Source: Bythopirellula sp. (GTDB taxonomy: Bacteria > Planctomycetota > Planctomycetia > Pirellulales > Lacipirellulaceae). From it: 64,000 nucleotides of DNA. The stretch spans positions 2,080,001 to 2,144,000 of the forward strand of contig OZ244170.1 of NCBI GenBank assembly GCA_965216565.1. Direction: 5' to 3'. Positions 1-13,013 of the stretch are shown here, piece by piece; position 1 is the first letter of the stretch; the number at the start of each line of letters is the position of its first letter. The translations under genes and the position numbers were made by a program. The notes beneath the pieces were generated by a model. That model was not told where the DNA came from. It ran no database searches and was given only the letters and a program-made list of their open reading frames with translations.

Positions 1-494
1 GGAAACTTCACGACGCCTCCATGATAAGCTCCATGGAAGGCGAGAATTTTGTTTCGACCAGTCACCATTCGCGCCGTCGTCAGCGCCATGATGCCAGCTT
101 CGGTTCCTGAATTGCAGAATCGCAATTGTTCCACCGAGGGAAAACGCTCGCAGATTAAACCCGCCAGCTCCCTTTCCAGCTCAGTCGGGGCGCCCATCAC
201 GATGCCCCTCTCCAATGCCTGTTGAACCGCCGACTTGATGGCTTGGTCCGAATGGCCAAACAGGCCGGCAGAAAACTCACCGACGAAGTCGACGTACCGA
301 TGCCCATCCAAGTCGACCAGCTCTGCCCCTTCGCCTCGAACCATGGTCAAGGGAAAAGGTTCGTAATGCAACACATTGCGTGTATTTCCCCCGGGCAAGT
401 AGCGCTGGGCCTCTTCGTCGGCTGCCATGCTCTGCGGATTGGCTGCCGCGTAGCGGTTACGTGCATCACTTAGTGCTTGTTGTAATGCTTCCAT
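1..494 (-). CDS. Class-III PLP aminotransferase, beta-amino-acid (beta-phenylalanine-type) transaminase; partial, 3' part beyond window start
   Basis: Not in the ORF track. Hand translation from ATG 494: MEALQQALSDARNRYAAANPQSMAADEEAQRYLPGGNTRNVLHYEPFPLTMVRGEGAELVDLDGHRYVDFVGEFSAGLFGHS...ICERFPSVEQLRFCNSGTEAGIMALTTARMVTGRNKILAFHGAYHGGVVKF. It has a GSA-aminotransferase-like fold. PGGNTRxVL, EF(S/T)AGxxGHS and YHGGV match my recollection of Variovorax/Mesorhizobium beta-transaminases better than HemL. Starts 8 bp after the thiolase stop. Confidence 0.85.
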   Translation of the reverse strand, partial: MEALQQALSDARNRYAAANPQSMAADEEAQRYLPGGNTRNVLHYEPFPLTMVRGEGAELVDLDGHRYVDFVGEFSAGLFGHSDQAIKSAVQQALERGIVMGAPTELERELAGLICERFPSVEQLRFCNSGTEAGIMALTTARMVTGRNKILAFHGAYHGGVVKF

Positions 495-502
495 AACTAG
501 CG

Positions 503-1705
503 CTACCCGACCTTCTCGATCGCCAGCGCAATTCCCTGGCCAACACCAACGCACATTGTGCAGAGGGCTCGTTTGCCTTCCCCGCGACGTAATTGATCGA
601 ATGCGGTCAGTGCCAGTCGGGCACCGCTCATACCCAAGGGATGGCCCAAGGCGATAGCTCCGCCGCGAGTATTGAGTCGGGAATCGTCATCCGCTAGCCC
701 TAGCTCTCTAGTACAGGCTAAAGCCTGCGCCGCAAATGCTTCGTTGAGTTCTAAGATATCGAAGCTATCCAACGTAACGCCTAACCGCTCGAGCAACTTG
801 TTCGTTGCGGGAACGGGACCAATGCCCATAATTCGCGGAGGCACACCGGCTACAGACATTCCAAGCACGCGAGCCACGGGTTCGAGTTGGTGACGCTTAG
901 CCCCAACTTCGGATGCCAGGAGCAATGCTGCGGCGCCGTCGTTGATGCCCGACGCATTTCCTGCGGTCACAGTGCCCTCTGGAAGAATTGGCTTCAGTTT
1001 GGCGAGTTTCTCGAGTGTTACTTCACGTGGATGCTCGTCCCGATCAACGAGGATCGGATCTTGCTTACGTCGCGGAACACTCACGGCGCAGATCTCACCA
1101 GCAAGTCGGCCGTCTTGCTGAGCAGTGGCGGCTTTGGTTTGACTCCAAATCGCAAACTGGTCTTGATCCTCGCGGCTGATGGAGCGTTCTCTGGCGAGGT
1201 TTTCAGCCGTTTCCGGCATCGATTCTGTGCCGTACTGCTCCTGCAGATTAGAGTTAATAAATCTCCATCCCATCGTGGTATCAAACATTTCCTGCTGTCG
1301 TCCAAAGGCCGCCTCCGGTTTGCCGATGACAAAAGGAGATCGAGACATACTCTCCACACCGCCGGCAATCATGAGATCGCCTTCTCCCGACTGGATTGCC
1401 GAAGCGCAGTTGCCCAAAGCGTTGAGCCCCGATGCACAGAGGCGATTGATTGTGTAGGCTGGCACTTCTTGCGGCACGCCGGCTAACAAACTGCTCATAC
1501 GCGCAACATTGCGATTGTCTTCCCCCGACTGATTGGTGCAGCCCAGCACAACATCGTCTAGCTCATGCCAGTCGACGCTAGGGTTTCGCTCCATCAGCGA
1601 CTTAATCGGTATCGCTGCCAGATCGTCGGTTCGAATCGTTGACAAACATCCTCCGTAACGCCCCACAGGTGTCCGGATTCCATCGCATAGGTAGACTTCA
1701 GTCAT
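503..1705 (-). CDS. pcaF: 3-oxoadipyl-CoA thiolase-like acetyl-CoA C-acyltransferase (PcaF/PaaJ type)
   Basis: RTPVGRYGG, NQSGEDNRNVARM, INRLCASG (catalytic Cys), NEAFAAQ, GGAIALGHPLG and TMCVGVGQG motifs. Confidence 0.93.
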   Translation of the reverse strand: MTEVYLCDGIRTPVGRYGGCLSTIRTDDLAAIPIKSLMERNPSVDWHELDDVVLGCTNQSGEDNRNVARMSSLLAGVPQEVPAYTINRLCASGLNALGNCASAIQSGEGDLMIAGGVESMSRSPFVIGKPEAAFGRQQEMFDTTMGWRFINSNLQEQYGTESMPETAENLARERSISREDQDQFAIWSQTKAATAQQDGRLAGEICAVSVPRRKQDPILVDRDEHPREVTLEKLAKLKPILPEGTVTAGNASGINDGAAALLLASEVGAKRHQLEPVARVLGMSVAGVPPRIMGIGPVPATNKLLERLGVTLDSFDILELNEAFAAQALACTRELGLADDDSRLNTRGGAIALGHPLGMSGARLALTAFDQLRRGEGKRALCTMCVGVGQGIALAIEKVG

Positions 1706-1745
1706 GATTCTGTTCTCATTGTTACTGCGGCACGCTCACGAGTAG

Positions 1746-2405
1746 CTAATTTGCAGGCAACTGGTTTGCGGGTAATATCGCTGTCCCCGTTTTCTGCTCG
1801 ACCTCTGCAAACCTAATTCCGGGCGCCAATTCGGCAACTTGAAAACCCTCAGGAGTAATATCAACCACCGCCAAATCGGTGTAAACACGAGATATTACAC
1901 CCACGCCCGTCAGTGGATAGGAGCACTGTTTCACCAGTTTAGGTTCGCCAGTTTTGGTCGTGTGTTGGGTGAGTACGTAGATGTTTTTCACACCCTGCAC
2001 CAGATCCATCGCGCCGCCAACTGCAGGGATGGCATCGGGAGCCCCGGTGGACCAATTCGCAATATCTCCATGGGCTGACACTTGCATAGTGCCTAACACA
2101 CAGACATCAATATGACCGCCTCGGATCATGCTGAAACTGTCGGCATGATGAAAATACGCCGCTCCAGGCACGGCTGTCACGTACTTCTTCCCAGCATTCA
2201 TCAGGTCGAGATCGATTTTGTCCTCGGCCGGCGCGGGTCCCATGCCTAGCAAACCATTTTCGGTGTGATACATGAATTCACGACCCGCAGGCACAAATTT
2301 GGTGACCAGCTCTGGTATGCCGATGCCTAAATTGACGTACGATCCGTCGGGAATGTCCTGGGCCACTCGTGCCGCCATCTGCTCCCTTGTCCAACCATTA
2401 CTCAT
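1746..2405 (-). CDS. pcaJ: 3-oxoacid (3-oxoadipate-type) CoA-transferase subunit B
   Basis: YVNLGIGIP, TENG (catalytic Glu), SFSMIRGGH and PAVGGAMDL motifs. Start reassigned to ATG 2405 (MSNGWTREQMA), which overlaps the subunit A stop as ATGA. Confidence 0.92.
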   Translation of the reverse strand: MSNGWTREQMAARVAQDIPDGSYVNLGIGIPELVTKFVPAGREFMYHTENGLLGMGPAPAEDKIDLDLMNAGKKYVTAVPGAAYFHHADSFSMIRGGHIDVCVLGTMQVSAHGDIANWSTGAPDAIPAVGGAMDLVQGVKNIYVLTQHTTKTGEPKLVKQCSYPLTGVGVISRVYTDLAVVDITPEGFQVAELAPGIRFAEVEQKTGTAILPANQLPAN

Positions 2406-3112
2406 GGGTAACTCTTGCCCTCCGCAATCAGCGTGTCTTCGTGAATAGGCTGAGAAACTTCTACAACGCGATTGACAAAAATCCCAGGAGTGACGACGCA
2501 CTCGGGATCGATTTCTCCCCGTTCGACTAAATTTCTTGTCTGAACGATCGTGGTTGTAGCTGCCATGCACATCAGTGGGCTAAAGTTGCGGGCAGTTTTA
2601 TTGTAGGTCAAGTTGCCGAGGGGATCGGCACACTCACTCTTGATCAATGCAAAGTCTGCTTTCAACCACGGCTCTAACACATACGTCCGACCATCAAACT
2701 CACGTTGCTCTTTGCCCTCCGCCAGGACCGTACCCACAGTAGTAGGAGTATAGAAGGCAGGTATTCCCGCGCCGGCCGAACGAATGCGTTCCGCCAGGGT
2801 GCCTTGAGGAACCAGGTCGAGTTCTATCTTTCCTTCTCGAAATAGCTTGGGAAAAACACGCGATTGACTCGATCTAGGAAAAGAGCAAATCATCTTTCTC
2901 ACCTGTCCATTGCCAATCAGGGCAGCCAGGCCTACTTCGCCGTTGCCCGTGTTGTTGTTGATCAAAGTCAGATCCTTCGCACCTTGATCAATGAGCGCAT
3001 GGATCAATTCGATCGGACTACCCGATGCACCGAAACCGCCAACCATTACGGTTGCACCGTCAGGGATATCGGCCACGGCTTCCGCCACGGATGGGCATGT
3101 TTTGTTGATCAC
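2402..3112 (-). CDS. pcaI: 3-oxoacid (3-oxoadipate-type) CoA-transferase subunit A
   Basis: DGATVMVGGFG, NNTGNGEVGLAAL, ICSFPR, PQGTLAERIR and TARNFSP motifs. Start reassigned to GTG 3112 (MINKT...), with GGAGA just upstream. Confidence 0.92.
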   Translation of the reverse strand: MINKTCPSVAEAVADIPDGATVMVGGFGASGSPIELIHALIDQGAKDLTLINNNTGNGEVGLAALIGNGQVRKMICSFPRSSQSRVFPKLFREGKIELDLVPQGTLAERIRSAGAGIPAFYTPTTVGTVLAEGKEQREFDGRTYVLEPWLKADFALIKSECADPLGNLTYNKTARNFSPLMCMAATTTIVQTRNLVERGEIDPECVVTPGIFVNRVVEVSQPIHEDTLIAEGKSYP

Positions 3113-3153
3113 CTGCAATCTCTCCGGCAAGCTATGAGATTTTGAAAAGCCAC

Positions 3154-3987
3154 CTATCGAAAAACGTCCGTCGATTCCCAAAGTTCTTCAATTCGGTCGA
3201 TACGCTCAGTCGCTTCCTCCTTCAACTCTTTGGCAATCTTTGACACAAGCAACTCGGCGATCGCCACTACGGGGACGGAACTATCAAACGGCCCGATAGC
3301 CGGCACTGAAATTTCGCACCAAATATCTGCCAATTCGACAAGAGGAGACAGCGGGCCATCGGTAATCGCAACTATCTCTACTCCATTATCGGCTAGCAGT
3401 TCGGTTGCCGTCACGACTAACCGCCGATAGCGGAAAAAGTCGAACACAACGGCGACATCTTTCGGGCCTGCATTCCCAATTTCGCTACCAAGGGAACGGT
3501 CATCCAACATTTGCACGCCTGGCCGAACCATCGATAGTCCGCTCTTAAATGCAATCGCGCCGGCTTGCGACGTCTCGCCAGACAGGATCCAAACATTCTT
3601 TGCACGCACTATCGACCGGACGAGTTTTGTTATTTTTTGTCTCTGAATTGCATCAAAAACAGAGTCGATCGCGCCATCTATCGTCTCGCGAACTGACAGA
3701 TCTGGTTTTTCGTCGCCCCGAATCCTTTCACTAGGACGAGCCAGACGACGCGACACATCGCTGCGGACCAACCGCTGTAATTGTGTGAAACCTTCGAAGC
3801 CCAGTTTGTTGGCAAAACGTACTACCGAAGGTCGACTCGTGCCGATGCGAGTTGCCAGATCTGACACCGTTCCAAAAGCGAGCAACATCGGCTCGGCGAG
3901 CACTGTCTCTGCAATACGTCGGTCGGTGGGCGTAAATTGCCCTCCTGCCGCAACTACCAGATCGGTTAGTGGAGAATTTTCCCTCAT
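3154..3987 (-). CDS. MurR/RpiR family transcriptional regulator (HTH + SIS domain)
   Basis: TVSDLATRIGTSRPSVVRFANKLGFEGFTQLQ HTH. SIS-like DVAVVFDFFRY...IVAITDGPLSPL...FDS. Start likely ATG 3987. Confidence 0.92.
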   Translation of the reverse strand: MRENSPLTDLVVAAGGQFTPTDRRIAETVLAEPMLLAFGTVSDLATRIGTSRPSVVRFANKLGFEGFTQLQRLVRSDVSRRLARPSERIRGDEKPDLSVRETIDGAIDSVFDAIQRQKITKLVRSIVRAKNVWILSGETSQAGAIAFKSGLSMVRPGVQMLDDRSLGSEIGNAGPKDVAVVFDFFRYRRLVVTATELLADNGVEIVAITDGPLSPLVELADIWCEISVPAIGPFDSSVPVVAIAELLVSKIAKELKEEATERIDRIEELWESTDVFR

Positions 3988-3989
3988 GC

Positions 3990-4036
3990 TGTTCACTATG
4001 TTACACAGTTGTACCACTCTGTTCAACCTGTTACAC
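3990..4036. promoter_or_regulatory. Five ~10-bp-phased direct repeats (TGTTACAC-like) in the RpiR/aminomutase divergent intergenic region; candidate operator
   Basis: TGTTCAC 3990, TGTTACAC 3999, TGTACCAC 4010, TGTTCAAC 4020, TGTTACAC 4029. Confidence 0.55.
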
Positions 4037-4091
4037 TGGCTATTCGGAAGCGAAGTATAGGTTGAATGAAGAAAACATAGCGAGGTAACCC

Positions 4092-5555
4092 GTGGCTAAC
4101 GATGACACATATGAGATGACAGACCGTCAGCAGGAATTTCTGGATTCAATTGATAGTCCGAAATACGAGCGAGAGATCATCAACGGCCTGAAGCCTTTTT
4201 TTGAAGAGAAGGCTCCGGAAGATATTAGAAACTTCTATTCCTCTGAGGAACTTGAGTCGTTGCGCGTCATTACCGACACCGAACGCGACGTGGAAACGCG
4301 GATGCCGGTGAAGGTTACCCGGCACTATTTCGAGTTGGCCAGAAACAGCCTGCCGCTGCAACGACTTGTGAAAGCCAGCCCGGACGAAACACTCAATCTG
4401 GAAGGGTCAGAAGATCCCGGTTATCAAATGGACTTCTCTCCGGTCGAGGGAATGTTGCACAAGTACGAGATGGGCTTGCTCTATACGGTCTCCACATGCT
4501 CGGCACATTGTCGTTTTTGTTACCGCGAAGAGCTGATCGGAAACAAAGAAGTAGAACGCCAAGATGGTTCGGTCGCCAGAAAAGGCATCGCTAAGATCAA
4601 AGACGTGACGGACTATATCCGCACACACAACGCCATGGTTGATTCCAATGGTGGAGTTCACCCAACGACAGGCCGCGAGAAACTTCGCGAAGTACTACTC
4701 TCGGGTGGCGATGCCATGATGCTTCCCAATAAGAAGATTGGTGAATGGCTGGCTGCCCTGGCAGAAGCAGGCGTGGAATCAATCCGCCTCGGCACGAAGG
4801 ACATGGCCTTCTACCCCAAACGCTTCGACAGCACCTTTTTGGCGATGATGGATAGTTTTCACGAAAAGTATCCAGACGTCGGATTCCGGTTGATGATTCA
4901 CTTTAATCATCCTGACGAATTCTTACTCAAAACGCCTGATGGCGAATATGCCACCAATCCAAATGGCACTCTCAAATGGCACGAAGACACGAAGCAGGCC
5001 ATGGAAGGCGTTGTCTCCCGCGGTTGGCTTAACGTCGAAAACCAAGCGCCGATCATCAAGGGCATCAATGACAATGTGGAAGCACTAAGGCTCATGCAAC
5101 GTGCCTTGTACCGATGTGGAATCAACAATCATTACTTTTTCTGTGGTAGAGATATCGTTGCTTACCGCGCCTTCAATGTCCCCATCGAAACCGCCTGGAC
5201 TCTTCTCAACGAATCCCAAAAAGGCTTGTCCGGCGTCGAAGCCCACGCGCGTCTCTCGATCACTCACTACAAGGGAAAAACCGAGGTTGCCGCGGTGACT
5301 AATGAACCGATGTCGGGAGTCCCTGGGGCAGAAAACGGCGTGCTAATTTTCAAGATTCTTCGCAACGCGTTGGATGCTCCAGACCGCGGCAAAGTATGCA
5401 TCGTGGGCCGCAACCCCGAAGCGATCTGGTTCGACGATTATGAAGACCGAGTGCTCTTTGACGAAGCCGGCTTGTACGAGTATTCGCGAGTCGACAAGAA
5501 GAAAGTCGAGATCAAGCAAACCGCAGATCTCGATACTGCGCTGAGCCAGAAGTAG
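4092..5555 (+). CDS. KamA-family radical SAM / PLP amino-acid 2,3-aminomutase-like protein (substrate probably not lysine)
   Basis: HKYE...CSAHCRFCYR (CxxxCxxC plus Arg), VLLSGGD, IRLGTK, HFNHPDE, NQAPIIKGINDN, and C-terminal KGKT (putative PLP lysine). GTG start with GAGG RBS. Confidence 0.9.
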   Translation: MANDDTYEMTDRQQEFLDSIDSPKYEREIINGLKPFFEEKAPEDIRNFYSSEELESLRVITDTERDVETRMPVKVTRHYFELARNSLPLQRLVKASPDETLNLEGSEDPGYQMDFSPVEGMLHKYEMGLLYTVSTCSAHCRFCYREELIGNKEVERQDGSVARKGIAKIKDVTDYIRTHNAMVDSNGGVHPTTGREKLREVLLSGGDAMMLPNKKIGEWLAALAEAGVESIRLGTKDMAFYPKRFDSTFLAMMDSFHEKYPDVGFRLMIHFNHPDEFLLKTPDGEYATNPNGTLKWHEDTKQAMEGVVSRGWLNVENQAPIIKGINDNVEALRLMQRALYRCGINNHYFFCGRDIVAYRAFNVPIETAWTLLNESQKGLSGVEAHARLSITHYKGKTEVAAVTNEPMSGVPGAENGVLIFKILRNALDAPDRGKVCIVGRNPEAIWFDDYEDRVLFDEAGLYEYSRVDKKKVEIKQTADLDTALSQK

Positions 5556-5590
5556 AAATAACACGCGGCAATGAAACGAATTCTTCGGCG

Positions 5591-5878
5591 GTTGGCTGCT
5601 CAGACTGTGAGTCGTGGCTTTGCTACGAGTGTGCAGCAACTTGCTCGAGTTGTGGAGAAGGACACTGCCATCAGTGCCTTCGATCCTGTGGCCGCTGCGA
5701 GGAACCGTTTTGCGCGAAGTGCCTTAAAACCTGCTCAGGCTGTCTGGAGCAAGTCTGTAACTGTTGTTTCATCTCAGACGAAAGGTGTGGTGATTGTTAT
5801 GAAGAAAATCAAGAGTCAACCAAATCCGTCTCTACGGTTCTCTCCCACCGCCTGGGCCAAGCTGCAATATCTCCATGA
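5591..5878 (+). pseudogene. Orphan 3' fragment of a Cys-rich (CxxC repeat) protein with no start codon
   Basis: The frame starting at 5591 reads VGCSDCESWLCYECAATCSSCGEGHCHQCLRSCGRCEEPFCAKCLKTCSGCLEQVCNCCFISDERCGDCYEENQES...ISP-stop (TGA 5876-5878). Not in the ORF track. Confidence 0.65.
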
Positions 5879-5995
5879 TGCAGGGGATACCGAACTCTGA
5901 GATTTCGGGATCGCCAGTGCCGAGGATCTCTTGTTGATCGAGGATGTGGTGCTCGTTGACCAGCGGTGCAGTGTGGTGGAAGTTGAACTAGTGGA
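5799..5995 (+). pseudogene. 5' fragment of a JAB/MPN-like peptidase gene with an in-frame stop, truncated before the metal-binding motif
   Basis: [63 protein letters not shown]. This resembles the planctomycete JAB-type N-terminus (LRFSPxAWAKL...TExGGFGI). TGA at 5898-5900 replaces the expected Gly, and no HTHP follows. Confidence 0.6.
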
Positions 5996-6149
5996 CTCGG
6001 TCGTGACAGATGCAATGCTGCGCCTTGTTCCAGCAAATAGATAGTCTGGAAGGGGAATTTGCGTTGTGCACATTTCCCCTTTTAGCTATCAACGCTTTCT
6101 AGATTCGTGGGACTCGATATTCGCTTCAAATTACCGACTTGCAAGCCAC

Positions 6150-6389: not shown

Positions 6390-7796
6390 CTAAGGAGAGG
6401 CCACCAACAATTTGCGGTGCTTGAGCGGATACCAATCAGCGATTCGCTTCGACAATCGTTCCACAATCTCGGGGTGTTGATCTGCAAGGTTCGACAGCTC
6501 GTTTGGATCAGCTTCCAAATCGAACAGCTGCGGACCTTTGATCGTGCGTGGATGGCTACTACGATAGCGATGTGCCTCGCCGTCATAAGTCAGCAGGAGC
6601 TTCCACTTGCCCTCGATGCACCAGCGATAGAGGAGCGAAGCCTCGGGGTCTTCGATGTCAGCGATGTCGTGGGCAAATCCCTCGCCGAAGATTGCGTCGC
6701 GGCCGATGGGATCCCCCCCGGTTAGAGATTGCCAAAGGTCGAGTCCTGGCAGATCCTCAGGCTGTCGCGCACCAGCGGCGCTCAGGATTGTGGGAACCAG
6801 GTCAATGCTACTGACTAGTTCGGATCGATCGGCTGGCTTCAGTTTGCCCGGCCAGGAAAACAAGATTGGCGTTCGCACGCCACCTTCATAGGGCGATTGC
6901 TTCGATCGGGCTGCGTAGCTGTCTTTATCGGGATGTTGAATCCAACCGTTGTCCGTAACGTAGACAATCAGAGTATTTTCGCGCAAACCCTTCTGGTCGA
7001 TCATTCCAATCAACTGCCCACAGGTTTCGTTAAACCAATCGCACATCGCGTAGTACTTAGCAACTGTGATTGGCCGGCTTTCGGTGCGATATTTGTCCAG
7101 AATTCTTTCCGGCGGATTGTGTGGAGTATGAGGTAGAAACGGTGCGTACCAAAGGAAGAATGGTTTTTCCTCTGCCTGGGCCATATCGACGAACTCTTCA
7201 ATCGGCTCCATGCCATGGCGTCCAATCTTCAGGCCGTCGTCTCCGTGTCGCCCGCCCGGCTTGGGGAAACCGCGCGTCATGCCATGTGTAAAGCCAGCAC
7301 GCTTGTAATTGCCTTCCCAATACTTACCGCTTTGGTGAGACAAATACCCCTGTTCGGCGAGCAGTTCCGGCAACGTATCGAACCGATCGATGTATGAGAT
7401 GAGTTGAGCACACCGCTGCTTATACAAATCGGAACCCTTCTCCGCATACTTCGGCGAAGGGTCGTTGCCGGTCACACCATGCTTGGACGCGTAGTGGCCG
7501 GTGAGTAGCGTTACCAAAGAAGGACGGCACAATGCAGTCGGTACATAGCCGCGTTTGAACACCACGCTATCACGGGCCAATTGATCCAGATGGGGTGTTT
7601 GAATATCAGGATGCCCCATAAAGCCATAGTCGGTCCAACTTTGATCATCCGAGATGATCAGCACAATGTTGGGCCGATCGGCTGCCAGAACATCGTTACT
7701 CGCTGCGCCCATTAGTGAGCCGACGAGGACGAGCAGCAATTGAGCTGCCGGTGAAACTTTGGGCATTTGCATACTTGGTGATTTTTTTAGGGACAA
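6390..7796 (-). CDS. Sulfatase (S1 family), secreted
   Basis: Signal peptide, RPNIVLIISDDQ, LCRPSL...LTG (variant signature), GKYW, PHTPH, TDNG and K.SPYEGGVRTP. The true start may be a few codons downstream. Confidence 0.93.
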   Translation of the reverse strand: MSLKKSPSMQMPKVSPAAQLLLVLVGSLMGAASNDVLAADRPNIVLIISDDQSWTDYGFMGHPDIQTPHLDQLARDSVVFKRGYVPTALCRPSLVTLLTGHYASKHGVTGNDPSPKYAEKGSDLYKQRCAQLISYIDRFDTLPELLAEQGYLSHQSGKYWEGNYKRAGFTHGMTRGFPKPGGRHGDDGLKIGRHGMEPIEEFVDMAQAEEKPFFLWYAPFLPHTPHNPPERILDKYRTESRPITVAKYYAMCDWFNETCGQLIGMIDQKGLRENTLIVYVTDNGWIQHPDKDSYAARSKQSPYEGGVRTPILFSWPGKLKPADRSELVSSIDLVPTILSAAGARQPEDLPGLDLWQSLTGGDPIGRDAIFGEGFAHDIADIEDPEASLLYRWCIEGKWKLLLTYDGEAHRYRSSHPRTIKGPQLFDLEADPNELSNLADQHPEIVERLSKRIADWYPLKHRKLLVASP

Positions 7797-8018
7797 CGTT
7801 CAACGGCCTGATTCACAATTGCGGCCTGCTGGATACGTAAGGTTTGCTCAGGCCAGCTAGTCTTGAAATCGTAAAGTGCACACTCTGCAGATCGTCTAAG
7901 ATGAAGGAGCACCTGGACGCAATTGGGCACTCGCTAATTAATAGGGCTTTACTTCACAACTGGATGACCAATCCTTCTATTCTTTGCGTAGCGGTAGCCA
8001 TAAGCGAGAATCGACTAC

Positions 8019-8045
8019 AACGTCGCAGCCTCTCAGATTTGGACA
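8019..8045 (-). promoter_or_regulatory. Putative ECF-sigma promoter TGTCCA-N17-CGTT for the sulfatase at 7796
   Basis: Minus strand TGTCCA aatctgagaggctgcga CGTT gtag; one of 8 copies with an exact 17-nt spacer. Confidence 0.7.
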
Positions 8046-8230
8046 AGATTTCTCAGAAACTTTGGGGTAGCTTGAATCGCCCTAGAAACGAGGGTCTTCC
8101 CGAAATTTGTTGAGTTCGAGGAAGCAGTGCAGTTCTCCGCAATGGCTGACTACAGATACACTTGGAACGAGCCGTTGGGGCTTAATCTGCGGGTTCTACG
8201 AACATTTCGCACAATTTGCCTTGAATAGTC

Positions 8231-8256
8231 GTCCATTTTCCCGCCTTTGGGCCGTG
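8231..8256 (+). promoter_or_regulatory. Putative ECF-sigma promoter GTCCA-N17-CGTG for the PEP-CTERM operon
   Basis: GTCCA ttttcccgcctttgggc CGTG atac. Confidence 0.7.
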
Positions 8257-8395
8257 ATACTCAAGAAGAACAGTGTGAAAACACTTATTTTGCTGGGTAT
8301 GGTGCGCTCGAAGGGTCATCAACGATCCCTTAAGTGAGCCTGGGAAAGAACTAATGAACAAAAGCAGCTAACTTTTCAGAGAGGGAGCCTCACCG

Positions 8396-9877
8396 ATGAG
8401 GAATTATCTATTTCTAACAATAACGGCGCTCGGTCTTGCCACATTTCTTAATGGTTCTTCTGCTTCTGCGCAATTTATTGCCGGCTGGGAACAATGGGCT
8501 TCTGGGGCTGGAGTAAAGGATGCAACCCAAACCGACGGATTCACCACAGCCACCACCCTCAACAACATGGGCAACAACAATGGTTTCGGTCTCGATTTCA
8601 CCGGGAACACCGACGGGACTTGGGGAACCTTAGCTGATCCCAATGCTGATGCGACAACAGACGAAAATTCTGATGGTTATCGGCTGACTAACGGTGAAGA
8701 TGGCTCGATCGATTTCATGTTGACAGACACCAGTGGTATCCCCAGAGATTTAAACACTTTTCATTTCGATACCGCCACTTGGAGACCTAACGCTGCCAAT
8801 GATTGGGAACTGTCGGTGATATCAGGTGATCTCACCGTGGGATCGATAGCGACCGGAAACGCTCCGAATGTCACGGGCGGTACCCCAGATTGGTCTGACT
8901 TCGATATCGATCTTACGGGGCTGGCTGACAATACACTGGACGGGAATGGTTCTGTAACGTTCCGCCTTAATTTTACAGGTGGCGTGTTAGGCAGTGCTGG
9001 CCACCATCAGTCGCTTGACAACGTGGCAATCTCTGGCGATGTTCCGACCTTGCCACCTAGCACTCTGCTCGCTGGTTGGGACGTCTGGGAATCAGACGGA
9101 GTCATTTCTCCCTCCTTCACCGAGGCAAATACAACAGGCTTCACGAGCAACAACGGTGGCGTTGCCGATCCCAACGGAAGCGGGTTTGGCCTGGATTTTG
9201 ACGGCAACACCGACGGGACTTGGGGTACTTTAGATACTCCTGCGGCCGACACAACAACAGACGACAACATGGATGTCTTCCGGTTGGTTAATGGTGAAGA
9301 TGGTTCTCTAGATTTCACGATCACCGACACGGGCGGTGTCGATCGAGACTTGGCTATTTTCCATTTTGACTCGGCTACGTTGCGACCAAATTCCTCTCGA
9401 GACTACGAGCTATCGATCGTAGCCGGTGACCTGACTTTAGGCACAGTAGCAACGGGTACCGTGCCGTCTCTTACAGGAGGTGTTCAGGATTGGACCGATT
9501 TTGATATCGTTCTCACCAATCTTGCTGACTTTACCTTGGATGCAAACGGGTCGGTCACTTTCCGGTTGCAATTTACCGGAAGCGATCCGAACTCTTCGCA
9601 AGCTGGTCACCATCAGTACCTAGATAATGTTGGCATTTCTGAGCTAGCGGCTCTCCCTGGTGACTTCGACTTCAGTGGAGTCGTCGATGGGTTGGATTTC
9701 CTTTTCTGGCAAGTAAACCTTGGCGACGCTGCCAATCTCACTCTGTGGGAAAACAACTACGGTAATTCACTGTCTGTAGGGGCATCCACAGCGGTTCCTG
9801 AACCTTCGAGTGCCGCACTCTTGACGTTGTTGACGGCCGGTGTGCTCTCTCGAAGGCGCCATCGTCGGATTCATTGA
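8396..9877 (+). CDS. PEP-CTERM surface protein made of two copies of the locus-specific ~190-aa module
   Basis: Signal peptide; two AGWxxW...GHHQxLDNVxIS repeats; PGDFD..DGLDFLFWQ motif; VPEP + TM + RRR. Confidence 0.9.
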   Translation: MRNYLFLTITALGLATFLNGSSASAQFIAGWEQWASGAGVKDATQTDGFTTATTLNNMGNNNGFGLDFTGNTDGTWGTLADPNADATTDENSDGYRLTNGEDGSIDFMLTDTSGIPRDLNTFHFDTATWRPNAANDWELSVISGDLTVGSIATGNAPNVTGGTPDWSDFDIDLTGLADNTLDGNGSVTFRLNFTGGVLGSAGHHQSLDNVAISGDVPTLPPSTLLAGWDVWESDGVISPSFTEANTTGFTSNNGGVADPNGSGFGLDFDGNTDGTWGTLDTPAADTTTDDNMDVFRLVNGEDGSLDFTITDTGGVDRDLAIFHFDSATLRPNSSRDYELSIVAGDLTLGTVATGTVPSLTGGVQDWTDFDIVLTNLADFTLDANGSVTFRLQFTGSDPNSSQAGHHQYLDNVGISELAALPGDFDFSGVVDGLDFLFWQVNLGDAANLTLWENNYGNSLSVGASTAVPEPSSAALLTLLTAGVLSRRRHRRIH

Positions 9878-9972
9878 TCCTGTTAGTTCACTGTTTTGAA
9901 CCACAGAAATTTCAAATTGTTTGTCATGTTTTTTGATCTAACCTTTTACCACTTTTCTTGAGGAGAAGACTA

Positions 9973-10692
9973 ATGATTTTGAGAGGATTAATTGTAACGT
10001 GTTTAGCGTTAGGCTTGCACGCCAACTGTTCGGCGGCCCTGATCGTGGCTTTTGATCAGGTTCGAAGTTCGAACGGCACTGATCCATTGAACTACGTAGT
10101 GCAAGACAGCGTCGACGTGATCACCACGCGCAGTGGCACCAACTCCTCCGGCGGTTCTGCTACTCCAGGCGTCAACAAAGAAGGCTCTACTGATGGCACA
10201 ATTGGTAGCGTCGCCGCTGCTGGCGTGAGTACTGATACAACAATAAACGGTGAGTCATGGCGTTGGACAAACGGCGCACAGACTGCCAATTTCGACTTCG
10301 ATTTCACTGATACCAGTGGTGCGGCCAGAACTGTATCAACATTCCATTTCGATGGTGGAACGAATCGTCCGAATGTAGCACAGGACTGGGAATTGTTTCA
10401 CGTCACAGGCGGAGGTGATGTTAGCCTCGGCACTGGAACGATTCCTCTTGTTTCTGGCGGCGCACTCCCAGAATACACAGACTTCGACGTTGCTTTGGGA
10501 GGCTTGACGTTACCTGCTAATGGTACGCTCAGCCTGAGTCTTCGCTTCACGAGGGATGATACAAACTCAGGCGTCAGCGGCCATCACGGTTACATCGATA
10601 ACATCGGACTCAGTGTTGTTCCAGAACCAAGCAGCTTGGCTCTGTTGACAATGATGTCCGTCGTCGCGCTCGGCAGAAAACGCCGTTCGTAA
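9973..10692 (+). CDS. PEP-CTERM surface protein with one diverged copy of the module
   Basis: AGGAG RBS before ATG 9973; signal peptide; STDGT...RWTNG...FHFDGGTNRP...GHHGYIDNIGLS; VPEPSS + TM + RKRRS. Confidence 0.9.
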   Translation: MILRGLIVTCLALGLHANCSAALIVAFDQVRSSNGTDPLNYVVQDSVDVITTRSGTNSSGGSATPGVNKEGSTDGTIGSVAAAGVSTDTTINGESWRWTNGAQTANFDFDFTDTSGAARTVSTFHFDGGTNRPNVAQDWELFHVTGGGDVSLGTGTIPLVSGGALPEYTDFDVALGGLTLPANGTLSLSLRFTRDDTNSGVSGHHGYIDNIGLSVVPEPSSLALLTMMSVVALGRKRRS

Positions 10693-10727
10693 CAAGTAAT
10701 TTTGGAATTTGTTAGACACTAATTGAG

Positions 10728-10765
10728 ACAGGTTCGGTGCACTATGCAGCGCCGAACCTGTTTTT
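10728..10765 (+). terminator. Rho-independent terminator inside the PEP-CTERM gene run
   Basis: 13-bp stem ACAGGTTCGGTGC / GCGCCGAACCTGT (one G-U pair) followed by a T-tract. Confidence 0.75.
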
Positions 10766-10781
10766 CGATTGAAGGAATGGG

Positions 10782-13013
10782 ATGTACAGCTTCCGCTTGA
10801 TTCTTGTCCTGCTTATCTGTCAGGCCTGTGGGTTGGCGTTTGCTGTAGAGTACCCCTATTCCAACGTTGGGCCGCAGAGCGCTTCACTAAGCGTCAGCAC
10901 CTTCAACCCAACGCCTTTCAATAGCAAGCTGCTCGGGCTAAACACCAATTTTCCCGAGAATCAGTATGGTAGTGATGGCTACAACGACGCCGATGGGCAG
11001 GCGTTGATCACAGCCTGGTCGCCACCAGCATTGAGGTTTCCACATGGAGTGTGGTCCAACTTCTACGACTGGGAAGTCGATGGTCGCCGAATCTACGACA
11101 ACTACATGGGCACGTACTACAATGCTGTCGTGAATCACCCGAATTTGCGGTATGGATATGACGGCTTCAAAACGCTGCATGACAGTCTGGGTTTCGATGT
11201 TCTTCATACTTGGAACGTGAATTATGACAGTCCCGCTAAAGGTGTTGCCAGGCTTCAGGACCGAAGAGCCGATGGATTTGACGTCAATCGTATTGAGCTC
11301 GGCAATGAGACCTTCTGGGTGAATCAGCGTAGCGAAGCTGTTGCTACTCCCGCACTGTACGTGTCGGTCGCCCAGGCACACTCTGCGGCGCTGAAAGCCG
11401 AGGATCCGAACATTCAAATCTCAGTACCCGTTTCCTGGAGGACGACAGGCCACCATGTGCCTTGGAACGCTGCCCTGGAAGCCGACCAGTCCTATTACGA
11501 CGCAGTCACACTCCATAAGTACATTCGACCAGGCGATTCGACCGCTGGGTTGCAGGAAGTACTCGACGCCCGCGCACAAATGATTCAGACCGCTGAGGCC
11601 ACCCGTGCGCAGTTTCCAGGTAAGCCGATCTGGCTATCGGAGTGGAGTATCGATGGAGGCGATAACGCCATCAGCGTGCTGGGGCTCTCGGATACGTATT
11701 TGGGGCTTATCGATCGACCCGATCTGTTCGATTCTGCCGAATACTTCCAAATCCACAATCACGATCCCTTGGTAATCTACGACAAGAATGCAAACCCCAA
11801 GCACGTGAAGACAACCCGCGGAGCTGGCTACGATATTCTTCGCAACGTGTTCCTCGACAGCGAACTGCTTTCTGGACAGGTCACCTCCAGCGAGATCGTG
11901 CCCGGCTTGGAAGCGACTTCGGCGAAGGCAGTCCTCAGAAATGGAGAACTAGTAGTCTACGCGGTTAACAAATCGCCAGTCAGCGTCCCGTTCAGCCTGG
12001 ATGTCGACAATACTGCCTATAGTGGAGCCTATACCCACGAGACACTACAGTTTAACGACGTCAACGACTTCCCTACTTTTGATCTCGGCGATAGTGGGCT
12101 AACGACTATCTCGTCCACGCCAGGCTCTATCACTCTCCCGCCGCTTTCGATCAGTGTGCTTTCCGGATTCGATCCAATTGAACCGAGCACTCTAGTAGCG
12201 GGTTGGGACACATGGAATGAAGTTGCCCCAGATTCGTGGGACGCTTCTCACTCTGCGGGAGTTTCGGCCCAAGCGGTCGGCACGGCGGAGGCTGGGGGTA
12301 TTTGGTTTAACTTTAGTAATGCAACAGTAGAAAATGGGGCCAGCAGCGATGGGCAGTTTGGAGCGACTGGCCCAGCTGAAGCCGAAACCTCAGTTGCCGT
12401 GAACACCGATGGGACGACTCTGTCCAACGGTTACGATGGGTCGATCGACTTCGTGTTAACTGATACTACTGGGACTGATAGGGCCCTAACCGGGTTTCAT
12501 TTTGATACGGGTGCTTTCCGACCGAACGCTGCCACAGATTGGGAGCTGGAAGTACTGGCAGGCGGCGATCTCACTGCGGGTTCTTTGGCTGCCGGAACTA
12601 CGACCATTAACCAAGGCCCCATACAAGACGATGAATCGATTAGTCTCAACGGACTCGCTGACAACACGCTAGAAGCATTTGGGTCAGTCACTTTTCGACT
12701 TAGTTTCACTGGAGGCGTCGACGGCTCGGCTGGTCACCATCTATTCTTGGACAATGTCGGGATCAGCGGATTTGCTCTTGGATTGCCGGGGGACTTCGAC
12801 AGCGATGGCGATGTGGATGGGCTCGACTTTATTGAGTGGCAAATGAACGACGGCACCGCTGCTGGGCTAGCGGACTGGCAGAACAACTATGGAACACAAT
12901 CACCTCAAGTCGCGGCAGCAGCGACCGTACCCGAGCCATCCTCGATGCTGCTGCTGACGTTGGGGACGATTCTATTTGCGAAGAGAAAAAGGCATGAGCC
13001 ATATGATAAATAA
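10782..13013 (+). CDS. PEP-CTERM-anchored clan GH-A glycoside hydrolase (GH51/GH79/GH39-like TIM barrel + beta-sandwich) plus one module copy
   Basis: LRFPHGVWSNFYDW, IELGNE (acid/base), DAVTLHKY, PIWLSEWS (nucleophile), VYAVNK...ITLPPLS; then module, PGDFD motif and VPEP. Confidence 0.8.
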   Translation: MYSFRLILVLLICQACGLAFAVEYPYSNVGPQSASLSVSTFNPTPFNSKLLGLNTNFPENQYGSDGYNDADGQALITAWSPPALRFPHGVWSNFYDWEVDGRRIYDNYMGTYYNAVVNHPNLRYGYDGFKTLHDSLGFDVLHTWNVNYDSPAKGVARLQDRRADGFDVNRIELGNETFWVNQRSEAVATPALYVSVAQAHSAALKAEDPNIQISVPVSWRTTGHHVPWNAALEADQSYYDAVTLHKYIRPGDSTAGLQEVLDARAQMIQTAEATRAQFPGKPIWLSEWSIDGGDNAISVLGLSDTYLGLIDRPDLFDSAEYFQIHNHDPLVIYDKNANPKHVKTTRGAGYDILRNVFLDSELLSGQVTSSEIVPGLEATSAKAVLRNGELVVYAVNKSPVSVPFSLDVDNTAYSGAYTHETLQFNDVNDFPTFDLGDSGLTTISSTPGSITLPPLSISVLSGFDPIEPSTLVAGWDTWNEVAPDSWDASHSAGVSAQAVGTAEAGGIWFNFSNATVENGASSDGQFGATGPAEAETSVAVNTDGTTLSNGYDGSIDFVLTDTTGTDRALTGFHFDTGAFRPNAATDWELEVLAGGDLTAGSLAAGTTTINQGPIQDDESISLNGLADNTLEAFGSVTFRLSFTGGVDGSAGHHLFLDNVGISGFALGLPGDFDSDGDVDGLDFIEWQMNDGTAAGLADWQNNYGTQSPQVAAAATVPEPSSMLLLTLGTILFAKRKRHEPYDK

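Follow-up and report, generated by a model that had tools for sequence, protein, structure and literature searches.

The window analysed here is a 64-kb stretch of the genome of Bythopirellula sp. (G000:C1:2080001-2144000 of a one-contig, 5.2-Mb genome). At its left end, a gene for a KamA-like radical S-adenosylmethionine (SAM) aminomutase stands divergent from a tightly packed row of genes for an RpiR-family regulator, the two subunits of a 3-oxoacid coenzyme A (CoA)-transferase, a thiolase and an aminotransferase, a cluster that we propose may degrade L-2-aminoadipate. Genes in the window were called from an open reading frame (ORF) listing together with Pfam and NCBIfam family scans. The cluster consists of the following features, in window coordinates, with protein lengths in amino acids (aa) and PLP standing for pyridoxal phosphate:

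<1-494, minus strand: class-III aminotransferase of the beta-transaminase family (PF00202), its N-terminal 164 aa inside the window
503-1705, minus strand: thiolase of the 3-oxoadipyl-CoA (beta-ketoadipyl-CoA), PcaF class, 400 aa (TIGR02430, NF006551)
1746-2405, minus strand: 3-oxoacid CoA-transferase subunit B (PcaJ/ScoB subfamily), 219 aa from the ATG at 2405 (TIGR02428)
2402-3112, minus strand: 3-oxoacid CoA-transferase subunit A (PcaI/ScoA subfamily), 236 aa from the GTG at 3112 (TIGR02429)
3154-3987, minus strand: RpiR/MurR-family regulator with HTH_6 and SIS domains, start ATG at 3987; the longest ORF reaches a TTG at 4026
3990-4035, plus strand: candidate RpiR operator, two direct repeats TGTTCA-N3-TGTTACA at 3990-4005 and 4020-4035
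4092-5555, plus strand: KamA-like radical SAM, PLP-dependent amino-acid 2,3-aminomutase of an uncharacterised branch, 487 aa, the proposed 2-aminoadipate 2,3-aminomutase

All six genes lie at the positions and in the divergent arrangement that an earlier reading of the letters alone (the sequence-only reading) had given, and its gaps of 41, -4, 40 and 8 bp were reproduced with the start codons as read; the reading frames of subunits A and B share 4 bp, at the stop of A and the start of B. The aminotransferase gene continues for 816 bases beyond the left end of the window and encodes 437 aa from the ATG at 494 (G000:C1:2079184-2080494).

A gene set that recurs across phyla

A search for the mutase family returned 2065 matches at E ≤ 0.001 among 7999 scored candidates. 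The best 120 matches showed 75-100% identity throughout, and their source names include Woeseiaceae, Lysobacterales, Chromatiales and Bythopirellula. For the locus set, one genome per species was scanned with the mutase; 157 relatives were found and 80 loci kept. Neighbours were counted with tblastn, using the window proteins as queries and accepting matches within 8 kb at E ≤ 1e-8 and at least 50% query coverage, and many of the misses are loci truncated by contig ends. The counts were as follows:

CoA-transferase subunit A: 68 of 80 loci
CoA-transferase subunit B: 65 of 80 loci
Aminotransferase: 61 of 80 loci
Thiolase: 48 of 80 loci
RpiR regulator: 26 of 80 loci, divergent from the mutase in every case
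Sulfatase: 1 of 80 loci
Symporter, UxaC and the 109-aa ORF downstream of the mutase: 0 of 80 loci each

These loci span Gammaproteobacteria, Acidobacteriota, Planctomycetota, Gemmatimonadota, Actinomycetota, Bacteroidota, Eiseniibacteriota and Alphaproteobacteria. The sequence-only reading had listed a gene set peculiar to this genome as a way in which it could fail; what we found instead is that the CoA-transferase, aminotransferase and thiolase accompany the mutase across phyla, an arrangement that is far from chance.

The module occurs in two gene orders, with two aminotransferase subfamilies filling the same slot. In the layout of the window, found in Gammaproteobacteria and Acidobacteriota, RpiR, subunits A and B, the thiolase and an aminotransferase 63-71% identical to that of the window are divergent from the mutase; the RpiR-mutase pair of this layout also occurs in one Phycisphaeraceae and one Acidimicrobiia locus. 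The co-directional layout, found in Planctomycetota, Flavobacteriaceae and Gemmatimonadota, has the mutase, A, B and a HemL-like aminotransferase (30-35% identical) in one direction, usually with a convergent thiolase. A chance juxtaposition of the mutase with an unrelated beta-ketoadipate or ketone-body module is very improbable given that the genes travel with it across phyla in both orders. Clustering of 934 rough ORFs from the 80 loci, made without a family scan, gave no further family recurring across lineages. The other ORF clusters present in at least nine loci all overlap the known six parts on the opposite strand, and from coordinates alone we judged them to be shadow ORFs.

The regulator matches PF01418 (the N-terminal HTH_6 domain, 47.9 bits) and PF01380 (SIS, 39.2 bits). 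The motif TGTTCA-N3-TGTTACA occurs twice in the 64-kb window, where 0.02 occurrences would be expected by chance. With up to two mismatches allowed, at least one copy lies within 200 bp upstream of the mutase in 26/26 RpiR-type loci, 22 of which have two copies exactly 31 bp apart, and only two matches fall elsewhere in the 318,820 bp of these loci. Judged by this conservation, the double repeat is a strong candidate for the RpiR operator, and RpiR probably represses the divergent pair by binding the two repeats between the genes. Since a start at TTG 4026 would put both conserved repeats inside the regulator gene, ATG 3987 is the more likely start. A promoter and terminator scan of 3900-6100 gave nothing beyond chance.

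Within the phylum of the window, the mutase occurs in only 19 of 401 sampled genomes, with no carrier among the 11 of the window's own order. The distribution is therefore patchy, and the module looks horizontally spread.

Cofactor sites and substrate pocket of the mutase

The mutase shares its fold with lysine 2,3-aminomutase (KamA, or LAM) of Clostridium subterminale (2a5h). An AlphaFold model of the protein, with a predicted local distance difference test score (pLDDT) of 91.3, retrieved 2a5h first in Foldseek at E 1.3e-17, eleven orders of magnitude ahead of the next entry (3.8e-06), and a profile of 42 family members and relatives matched 2a5h at E 1e-84 over residues 9-356. Also common to the two proteins are the CxxxCxxC motif with its following Arg, the PLP lysine and the GGD motif. 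In the alignment, C136-x3-C140-x2-C143 falls on the cluster cysteines of 2a5h and R145 on the Arg next but one to them, and the three cysteines of this [4Fe-4S]-SAM cluster motif are invariant in 42/42 aligned sequences. The GGD motif is likewise invariant in the mutase alignment, as is K396, which falls on the Lys of GGGGK in 2a5h (Lys337), the PLP-binding lysine.

Otherwise the proteins are far apart: the window mutase is only ~19% identical to 2a5h, some 70 residues longer overall, and carries an insertion of ~25 residues after the HFNHPDE motif (residues ~279-305, window ~4926-5006). This insertion gave spurious phmmer matches to designed beta-propeller "Cake" proteins. The mutase scores below all curated NCBIfam cut-offs of the KamA group, with 85.7 bits against 199.2 for KamA (TIGR00238), 72.6 against 525 for LAM (TIGR03820), 83 against 650 for glutamate 2,3-aminomutase (TIGR04368), 76.6 against 600 for the Arg model and 82.7 against 369 for the EpmB model. 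By these scores, the family is a distant branch outside the curated KamA model TIGR00238. Compared with lysine 2,3-aminomutase and the rest of the KamA family (AblA, EpmB and the Glu and Arg 2,3-aminomutases), its setting differs as well, this mutase belonging to a CoA-transferase/thiolase operon and not to a fermentation or elongation factor P (EF-P) context.

The substrate pocket points away from lysine. R353 aligns with Asp293 of 2a5h and S389 with Asp330, the two residues that we take to hold the epsilon-amino group of lysine, and the same replacements occur in 15/15 close family members aligned. In alignment A1, Asp stands at both positions in the two rows placed by NCBIfam in the lysine 2,3-aminomutase class. 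Glutamate 2,3-aminomutase would be expected to have Lys and Asn there; no row of A1 is a clear member of that family, and one LAM-class row cross-matched its model. With the Fe-S cysteines, the carboxylate Arg and the PLP lysine kept but Arg353 and Ser389 in place of Asp293 and Asp330, the enzyme appears cofactor-complete; it is not expected to bind lysine, and its substrate probably has an anionic side chain. Further uncharacterised KamA-like clades (P0126-P0147 and others), 37-46% identical, likewise have Arg at the Asp293 position.

A mutase acting only on lysine, which the sequence-only reading had named as a possible refutation, is thus disfavoured by computation, as both lysine-binding Asp residues are replaced. 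The corresponding account of the cluster, an ordinary lysine 2,3-aminomutase heading the degradation of beta-lysine, finds its basis in the source databases, which name many family members "lysine 2,3-aminomutase", and in the shared fold and cofactor motifs. Like the chance juxtaposition considered above, we rate it very improbable: the Asp pair is lost in all 15 close members, the LAM score is a small fraction of its cut-off, and no lysine-fermentation enzyme is among the families recognised in the window or its left flank (no whole-genome search was made). The last point agrees for the window genes with the sequence-only reading, which had seen no kamDE, kdd, kce or kal.

An anionic substrate other than 2-aminoadipate is harder to set aside. 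The lost Asp pair and the gained Arg353 would suit any anionic side chain, and glutamate 2,3-aminomutase is the highest-scoring curated equivalog model for the window mutase and the top model overall for the mutase of Wocania arenilitoris, although its score of 83 bits for the window protein is far from the cut-off of 650. The same enzymes and logic could therefore serve another acidic or neutral alpha-amino acid: glutamate, via beta-glutamate and 3-oxoglutarate to malonyl-CoA and acetyl-CoA; 2-aminopimelate, via 3-oxopimelate to glutaryl-CoA and acetyl-CoA; or a short neutral amino acid yielding acetoacetate. We consider this unlikely though credible, and return to it below with the thiolase and the genomic links.

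In some lineages, a 107-aa 7Fe-type ferredoxin (Fer4 and DUF3470) lies directly 3' of the mutase, namely in Wocania (L057:9474-9797) and in four Mesorhizobium loci (L024:9478-9801, and also L025, L026 and L029). It is a likely electron donor for the radical SAM cluster. In the window-type loci no ferredoxin adjoins the mutase.

The proposed route and the enzymes of its later steps

We assign a probability of about 0.6 to the reading that the cluster is a catabolic route for L-2-aminoadipate, in four steps that would run as follows. L-2-aminoadipate would be supplied from lysine by lysine 6-dehydrogenase and L-piperideine-6-carboxylate (P6C) dehydrogenase. In step 1, the KamA-like enzyme, using its [4Fe-4S] cluster, SAM and PLP, would shift the amino group from C2 to C3 in a radical 1,2-shift, giving 3-aminoadipate. 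In step 2, the beta-transaminase would pass this amino group to a 2-oxo acid, leaving 3-oxoadipate. The PcaIJ-type CoA-transferase would convert 3-oxoadipate to 3-oxoadipyl-CoA with succinyl-CoA as CoA donor (step 3), and the PcaF-type thiolase would cleave the product to succinyl-CoA and acetyl-CoA (step 4). Since step 3 would consume the succinyl-CoA that step 4 yields, the balance of the route would be succinate, acetyl-CoA and one transferred amino group (2-aminoadipate + 2-oxo acid + CoA -> succinate + acetyl-CoA + amino acid), with no oxygen, redox cofactor or carbon loss. Steps 3 and 4 are those of the established lower beta-ketoadipate pathway, whereas we infer steps 1 and 2, the substrate, and the order and direction of the whole. 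We are far more confident of the broader statement that a non-lysine aminomutase feeds a beta-transaminase and, after it, a 3-oxoacid CoA-transferase and a thiolase, which we regard as very likely.

The full-length aminotransferase matches PF00202 with 180 bits. Its best solved relatives are the beta-phenylalanine aminotransferase 4ao9 of Variovorax (E 1.3e-122) and the beta-transaminases 6iz9 and 2yku (the latter from Mesorhizobium), at 405-413 bits and over nearly the full length; glutamate-1-semialdehyde aminomutases trail at E 2e-74 or worse, the first such chain at 254 bits. By its nearness to these three solved enzymes, the protein is predicted to be of the beta-transaminase type, as the sequence-only reading had it. 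Transaminases of the 4ao9, 2yku and 6iz9 type have been studied on aromatic and aliphatic beta-amino acids; in contrast, the enzyme here is paired with an aminomutase and CoA enzymes, and a HemL-like subfamily substitutes for it in half of the loci. Among solved structures, the HemL-like enzyme is closest to 6k8h and ForI, and not to beta-transaminases.

This second aminotransferase type bears on the order of the steps. PMC3149608 describes a variant lysine fermentation in which the HemL-like class-III acyl-CoA beta-transaminase Kat, which acts only on 3-aminobutyryl-CoA, transaminates this beta-amino compound derived from lysine, and the 3-oxo product is cleaved by a thiolase. That route differs from the one proposed here in running via beta-lysine, 3,5-diaminohexanoate and 3-aminobutyryl-CoA, with a true lysine 2,3-aminomutase; none of its other enzymes is among the families recognised in the window or left flank. 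By analogy with Kat, the CoA-transferase could activate 3-aminoadipate first and the aminotransferase then act on the CoA ester. CoA transfer before transamination is possible, especially with the HemL-like type, which is not closest to beta-transaminases, but as an alternative to the order given above we find it distinctly unlikely. The window aminotransferase is nearest to enzymes that act on free beta-amino acids, transferases of the PcaI/ScoA type are known (by family name only) for 3-oxo acids, and Mesorhizobium has the mutase, ferredoxin and aminotransferase without an adjoining CoA-transferase.

The thiolase scores 659.1 bits against a cut-off of 597 with the pcaF equivalog TIGR02430 and 677.4 against 605 with NF006551, and it matches the solved beta-ketoadipyl-CoA thiolase 6pca at 540 bits, compared with at most 316 bits for chains named acetoacetyl-CoA or acetyl-CoA thiolase. 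In a genome-wide search it was the only match over the pcaF cut-off (658.7 bits), and none of 14 control genomes passed. The thiolase class therefore implies a 3-oxoadipyl-CoA intermediate, and placement in the PcaF class, far above the acetoacetyl-CoA thiolases, argues against the other amino acids named above. The CoA-transferase subunits both pass their subfamily cut-offs (A, TIGR02429, 356.4 bits against 128.5; B, TIGR02428, 296.2 against 243.55). The best solved relative of subunit A is the succinyl-CoA:3-ketoacid CoA-transferase 3cdk (ScoA), and none of the solved-structure matches is named PcaI or 3-oxoadipate CoA-transferase. Because the subfamily includes the acetoacetate-specific ScoAB and its best solved relative is ScoA, this step does not single out a C6 substrate, which leaves the alternative amino acids some room.

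The thiolase and both transferase subunits thus resemble the lower beta-ketoadipate pathway (PcaIJ and PcaF), and differ from it in that no upper aromatic pathway was found here and the 3-oxoadipate would derive from an amino acid. An aromatic source of 3-oxoadipate was considered and rejected. The sequence-only reading had allowed that ring-cleavage genes might lie just left of the window; the 18 kb to the left were read and contain none, and neither does the window. Genome-wide, neither PcaH (best match 101.7 bits against a cut-off of 296.4) nor PcaD (145.4 against 255.85) was found over its cut-off. The PcaH match is the sole intradiol-dioxygenase-like match of the genome and lies at G000:C1:4860407-4860946, 2.7 Mb from the window.

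Genomic links to lysine and what the route would mean

Several loci place the module beside enzymes that form 2-aminoadipate. The cultured Wocania arenilitoris has one co-directional row of the mutase, the 7Fe-type ferredoxin, CoA-transferase A and B, the aminotransferase, PcaF (651 bits against 597) and P6C dehydrogenase (817 against 730), the last being the enzyme that makes 2-aminoadipate. Four Mesorhizobium species carry the mutase, ferredoxin and aminotransferase without a local CoA-transferase, and PcaF is over its cut-off in 4/4 of their genomes. In three of these loci a lysine-6-dehydrogenase-like gene lies within 8 kb, and at one of them P6C dehydrogenase is found as well, 2 kb upstream. 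In M. australafricanum, the ~20 kb of contig after the trio hold genes for LysR, Lrp, a lysine-dehydrogenase-like protein, HglS and P6C dehydrogenase, an IS66 element, and genes for PcaR, two CoA-transferase subunits and PcaF. This neighbourhood may have been rearranged, as P6C dehydrogenase is separated from the pcaR-pcaIJF-like genes by TnpB and pieces of IS66 transposase (L100:7866-10202).

The genome of the window has a comparable source. A lysine-dehydrogenase-like gene (saccharopine/lysine-6-dehydrogenase-like, 376 aa) overlaps by 4 bp the start of a P6C dehydrogenase gene whose product scores 788 against 730; the pair lies at G000:C1:1098274-1100948 (L099:7274-9948, plus strand), ~1 Mb from the window, and is the probable lysine-to-2-aminoadipate operon of the genome. 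HglS had no match in this genome. The 2-aminoadipate transaminase model NF049976 also had none over its cut-off there, which carries little weight as 0/14 control genomes pass it. With the lysine-dehydrogenase-like/P6C dehydrogenase pair present and PcaD and PcaH below their cut-offs, the genome thus offers a supply of 2-aminoadipate but lacks an aromatic origin for 3-oxoadipate.

P6C dehydrogenase also tends to accompany the mutase across genomes. Of the 80 loci, the first 50 had their genomes searched, and the enzyme was found at E ≤ 1e-100 in 46 of these and over its cut-off in 31. In the 401-genome phylum sample, where the carrier and non-carrier lists were matched by eye, it was present in 18/19 mutase carriers and 158/382 non-carriers. 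We regard the co-occurrence as only moderately informative, since many genomes of the phylum have P6C dehydrogenase anyway (41% of non-carriers) and related genomes do not count as independent cases. A complementary distribution of the mutase route and HglS was also considered and set aside as not clean, with HglS present in 5/19 carriers.

Taken together, the PcaF-class thiolase and the occurrence of P6C dehydrogenase in the Wocania operon, near the Mesorhizobium cluster and in nearly all carriers back 2-aminoadipate, the substrate that the sequence-only reading had preferred, and we keep it as the proposed one. These operon and genome links point to the formation of 2-aminoadipate and not to glutamate, which counts further against the alternative amino acids. 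They also bear on direction. All four reaction types are reversible in principle, and the cluster could instead build 3-oxoadipate, 3-aminoadipate and 2-aminoadipate from succinyl-CoA and acetyl-CoA, as a precursor of lysine or a secondary metabolite. Such a biosynthetic role is barely plausible, given that the module is linked to the catabolic P6C dehydrogenase and to substrate-type regulators (RpiR, LysR) and that the rough ORF clustering gave no other recurring family.

A number of observations weigh against degradation of 2-aminoadipate as we propose it. Beyond its frequency in the phylum, P6C dehydrogenase is missing at the thresholds used in one phylum carrier (G435) and in 4/50 metagenome-assembled genomes. 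HglS, a known 2-oxoadipate enzyme, occurs in 34/401 phylum genomes, including those five mutase carriers, and in Mesorhizobium it lies (729 bits against 550) between the lysine-dehydrogenase-like gene and P6C dehydrogenase, where it alone could account for both of these neighbours. Arg at position 353 is also found in most uncharacterised relatives at 25-45% identity (alignment A1), and it therefore marks a non-lysine substrate and not 2-aminoadipate specifically. Three Planctomycetota thiolases of the co-directional layout score 553-561, just below the pcaF cut-off of 597, although their top family is still pcaF or its sister 3-oxoadipyl-CoA thiolase model NF006551. The subfamily models and solved relatives of the CoA-transferase cover 3-oxoadipate (PcaIJ) and acetoacetate (ScoAB) enzymes alike. 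Finally, RpiR regulators usually sense sugar phosphates.

In the window genome, left of the aminotransferase, lie genes for a sodium:solute symporter, glucuronate isomerase, a DUF6807 protein, DUF1501/DUF1553 planctomycete-type proteins and xylose isomerase. The symporter (615 aa, G000:C1:2077181-2079028; L003:15181-17028, minus strand; TIGR00813, 339 bits) is encoded on the same strand as the aminotransferase, 155 bp downstream of it, and could import the pathway substrate, against which stands the absence of a counterpart in the 80 related loci. An ORF of 109 aa begins 16 bp past the mutase (window 5571-5900, plus strand); it may not be a gene, because neither Pfam nor NCBIfam gave a match and none of the 80 loci has a counterpart. 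The cluster is followed on its right by a sulfatase (PF00884) and three proteins with PEP-CTERM tails (window 6390-13013), which are unrelated to it and fit a planctomycete-like host.

In a literature search that left subscription journals outside its reach, no paper turned up on the catabolism of 3-aminoadipate, on an aminomutase for 2-aminoadipate or on this combination of genes. Every enzyme family involved is known, and it is the substrate branch and the logic of the pathway that appear new. The known fates of 2-aminoadipate, transamination to 2-oxoadipate followed by HglS or the glutaryl-CoA route, would start from the same input made by lysine dehydrogenase and P6C dehydrogenase. These routes give up one or two carbons as CO2 and depend on O2 or a dehydrogenase complex, whereas the proposed route would keep all six carbons. 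On balance we lean, by a little more than even odds, toward an L-2-aminoadipate 2,3-aminomutase as a new activity that heads a widespread, horizontally spread, oxygen-independent and carbon-conserving end of bacterial lysine catabolism, feeding into central metabolism by way of the beta-ketoadipate enzymes, with 3-aminoadipate as a new natural intermediate.

The proposed route is directly testable in cultured carriers, and as it would keep six carbons and not need oxygen, it is of interest for engineering adipate-family and beta-amino-acid chemistry. If it is true, radical SAM aminomutases would gain a fourth substrate class, 3-aminoadipate would be a new natural metabolite, and thousands of "lysine 2,3-aminomutase" annotations would be corrected. 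The route would also account for PcaIJF-like genes in genomes without an aromatic pathway, and it would represent a new path for the carbon of lysine in abundant bacteria of sediment, freshwater and soil, among them Woeseiaceae, Phycisphaerales, Acidobacteriota, Mesorhizobium and Flavobacteriaceae.

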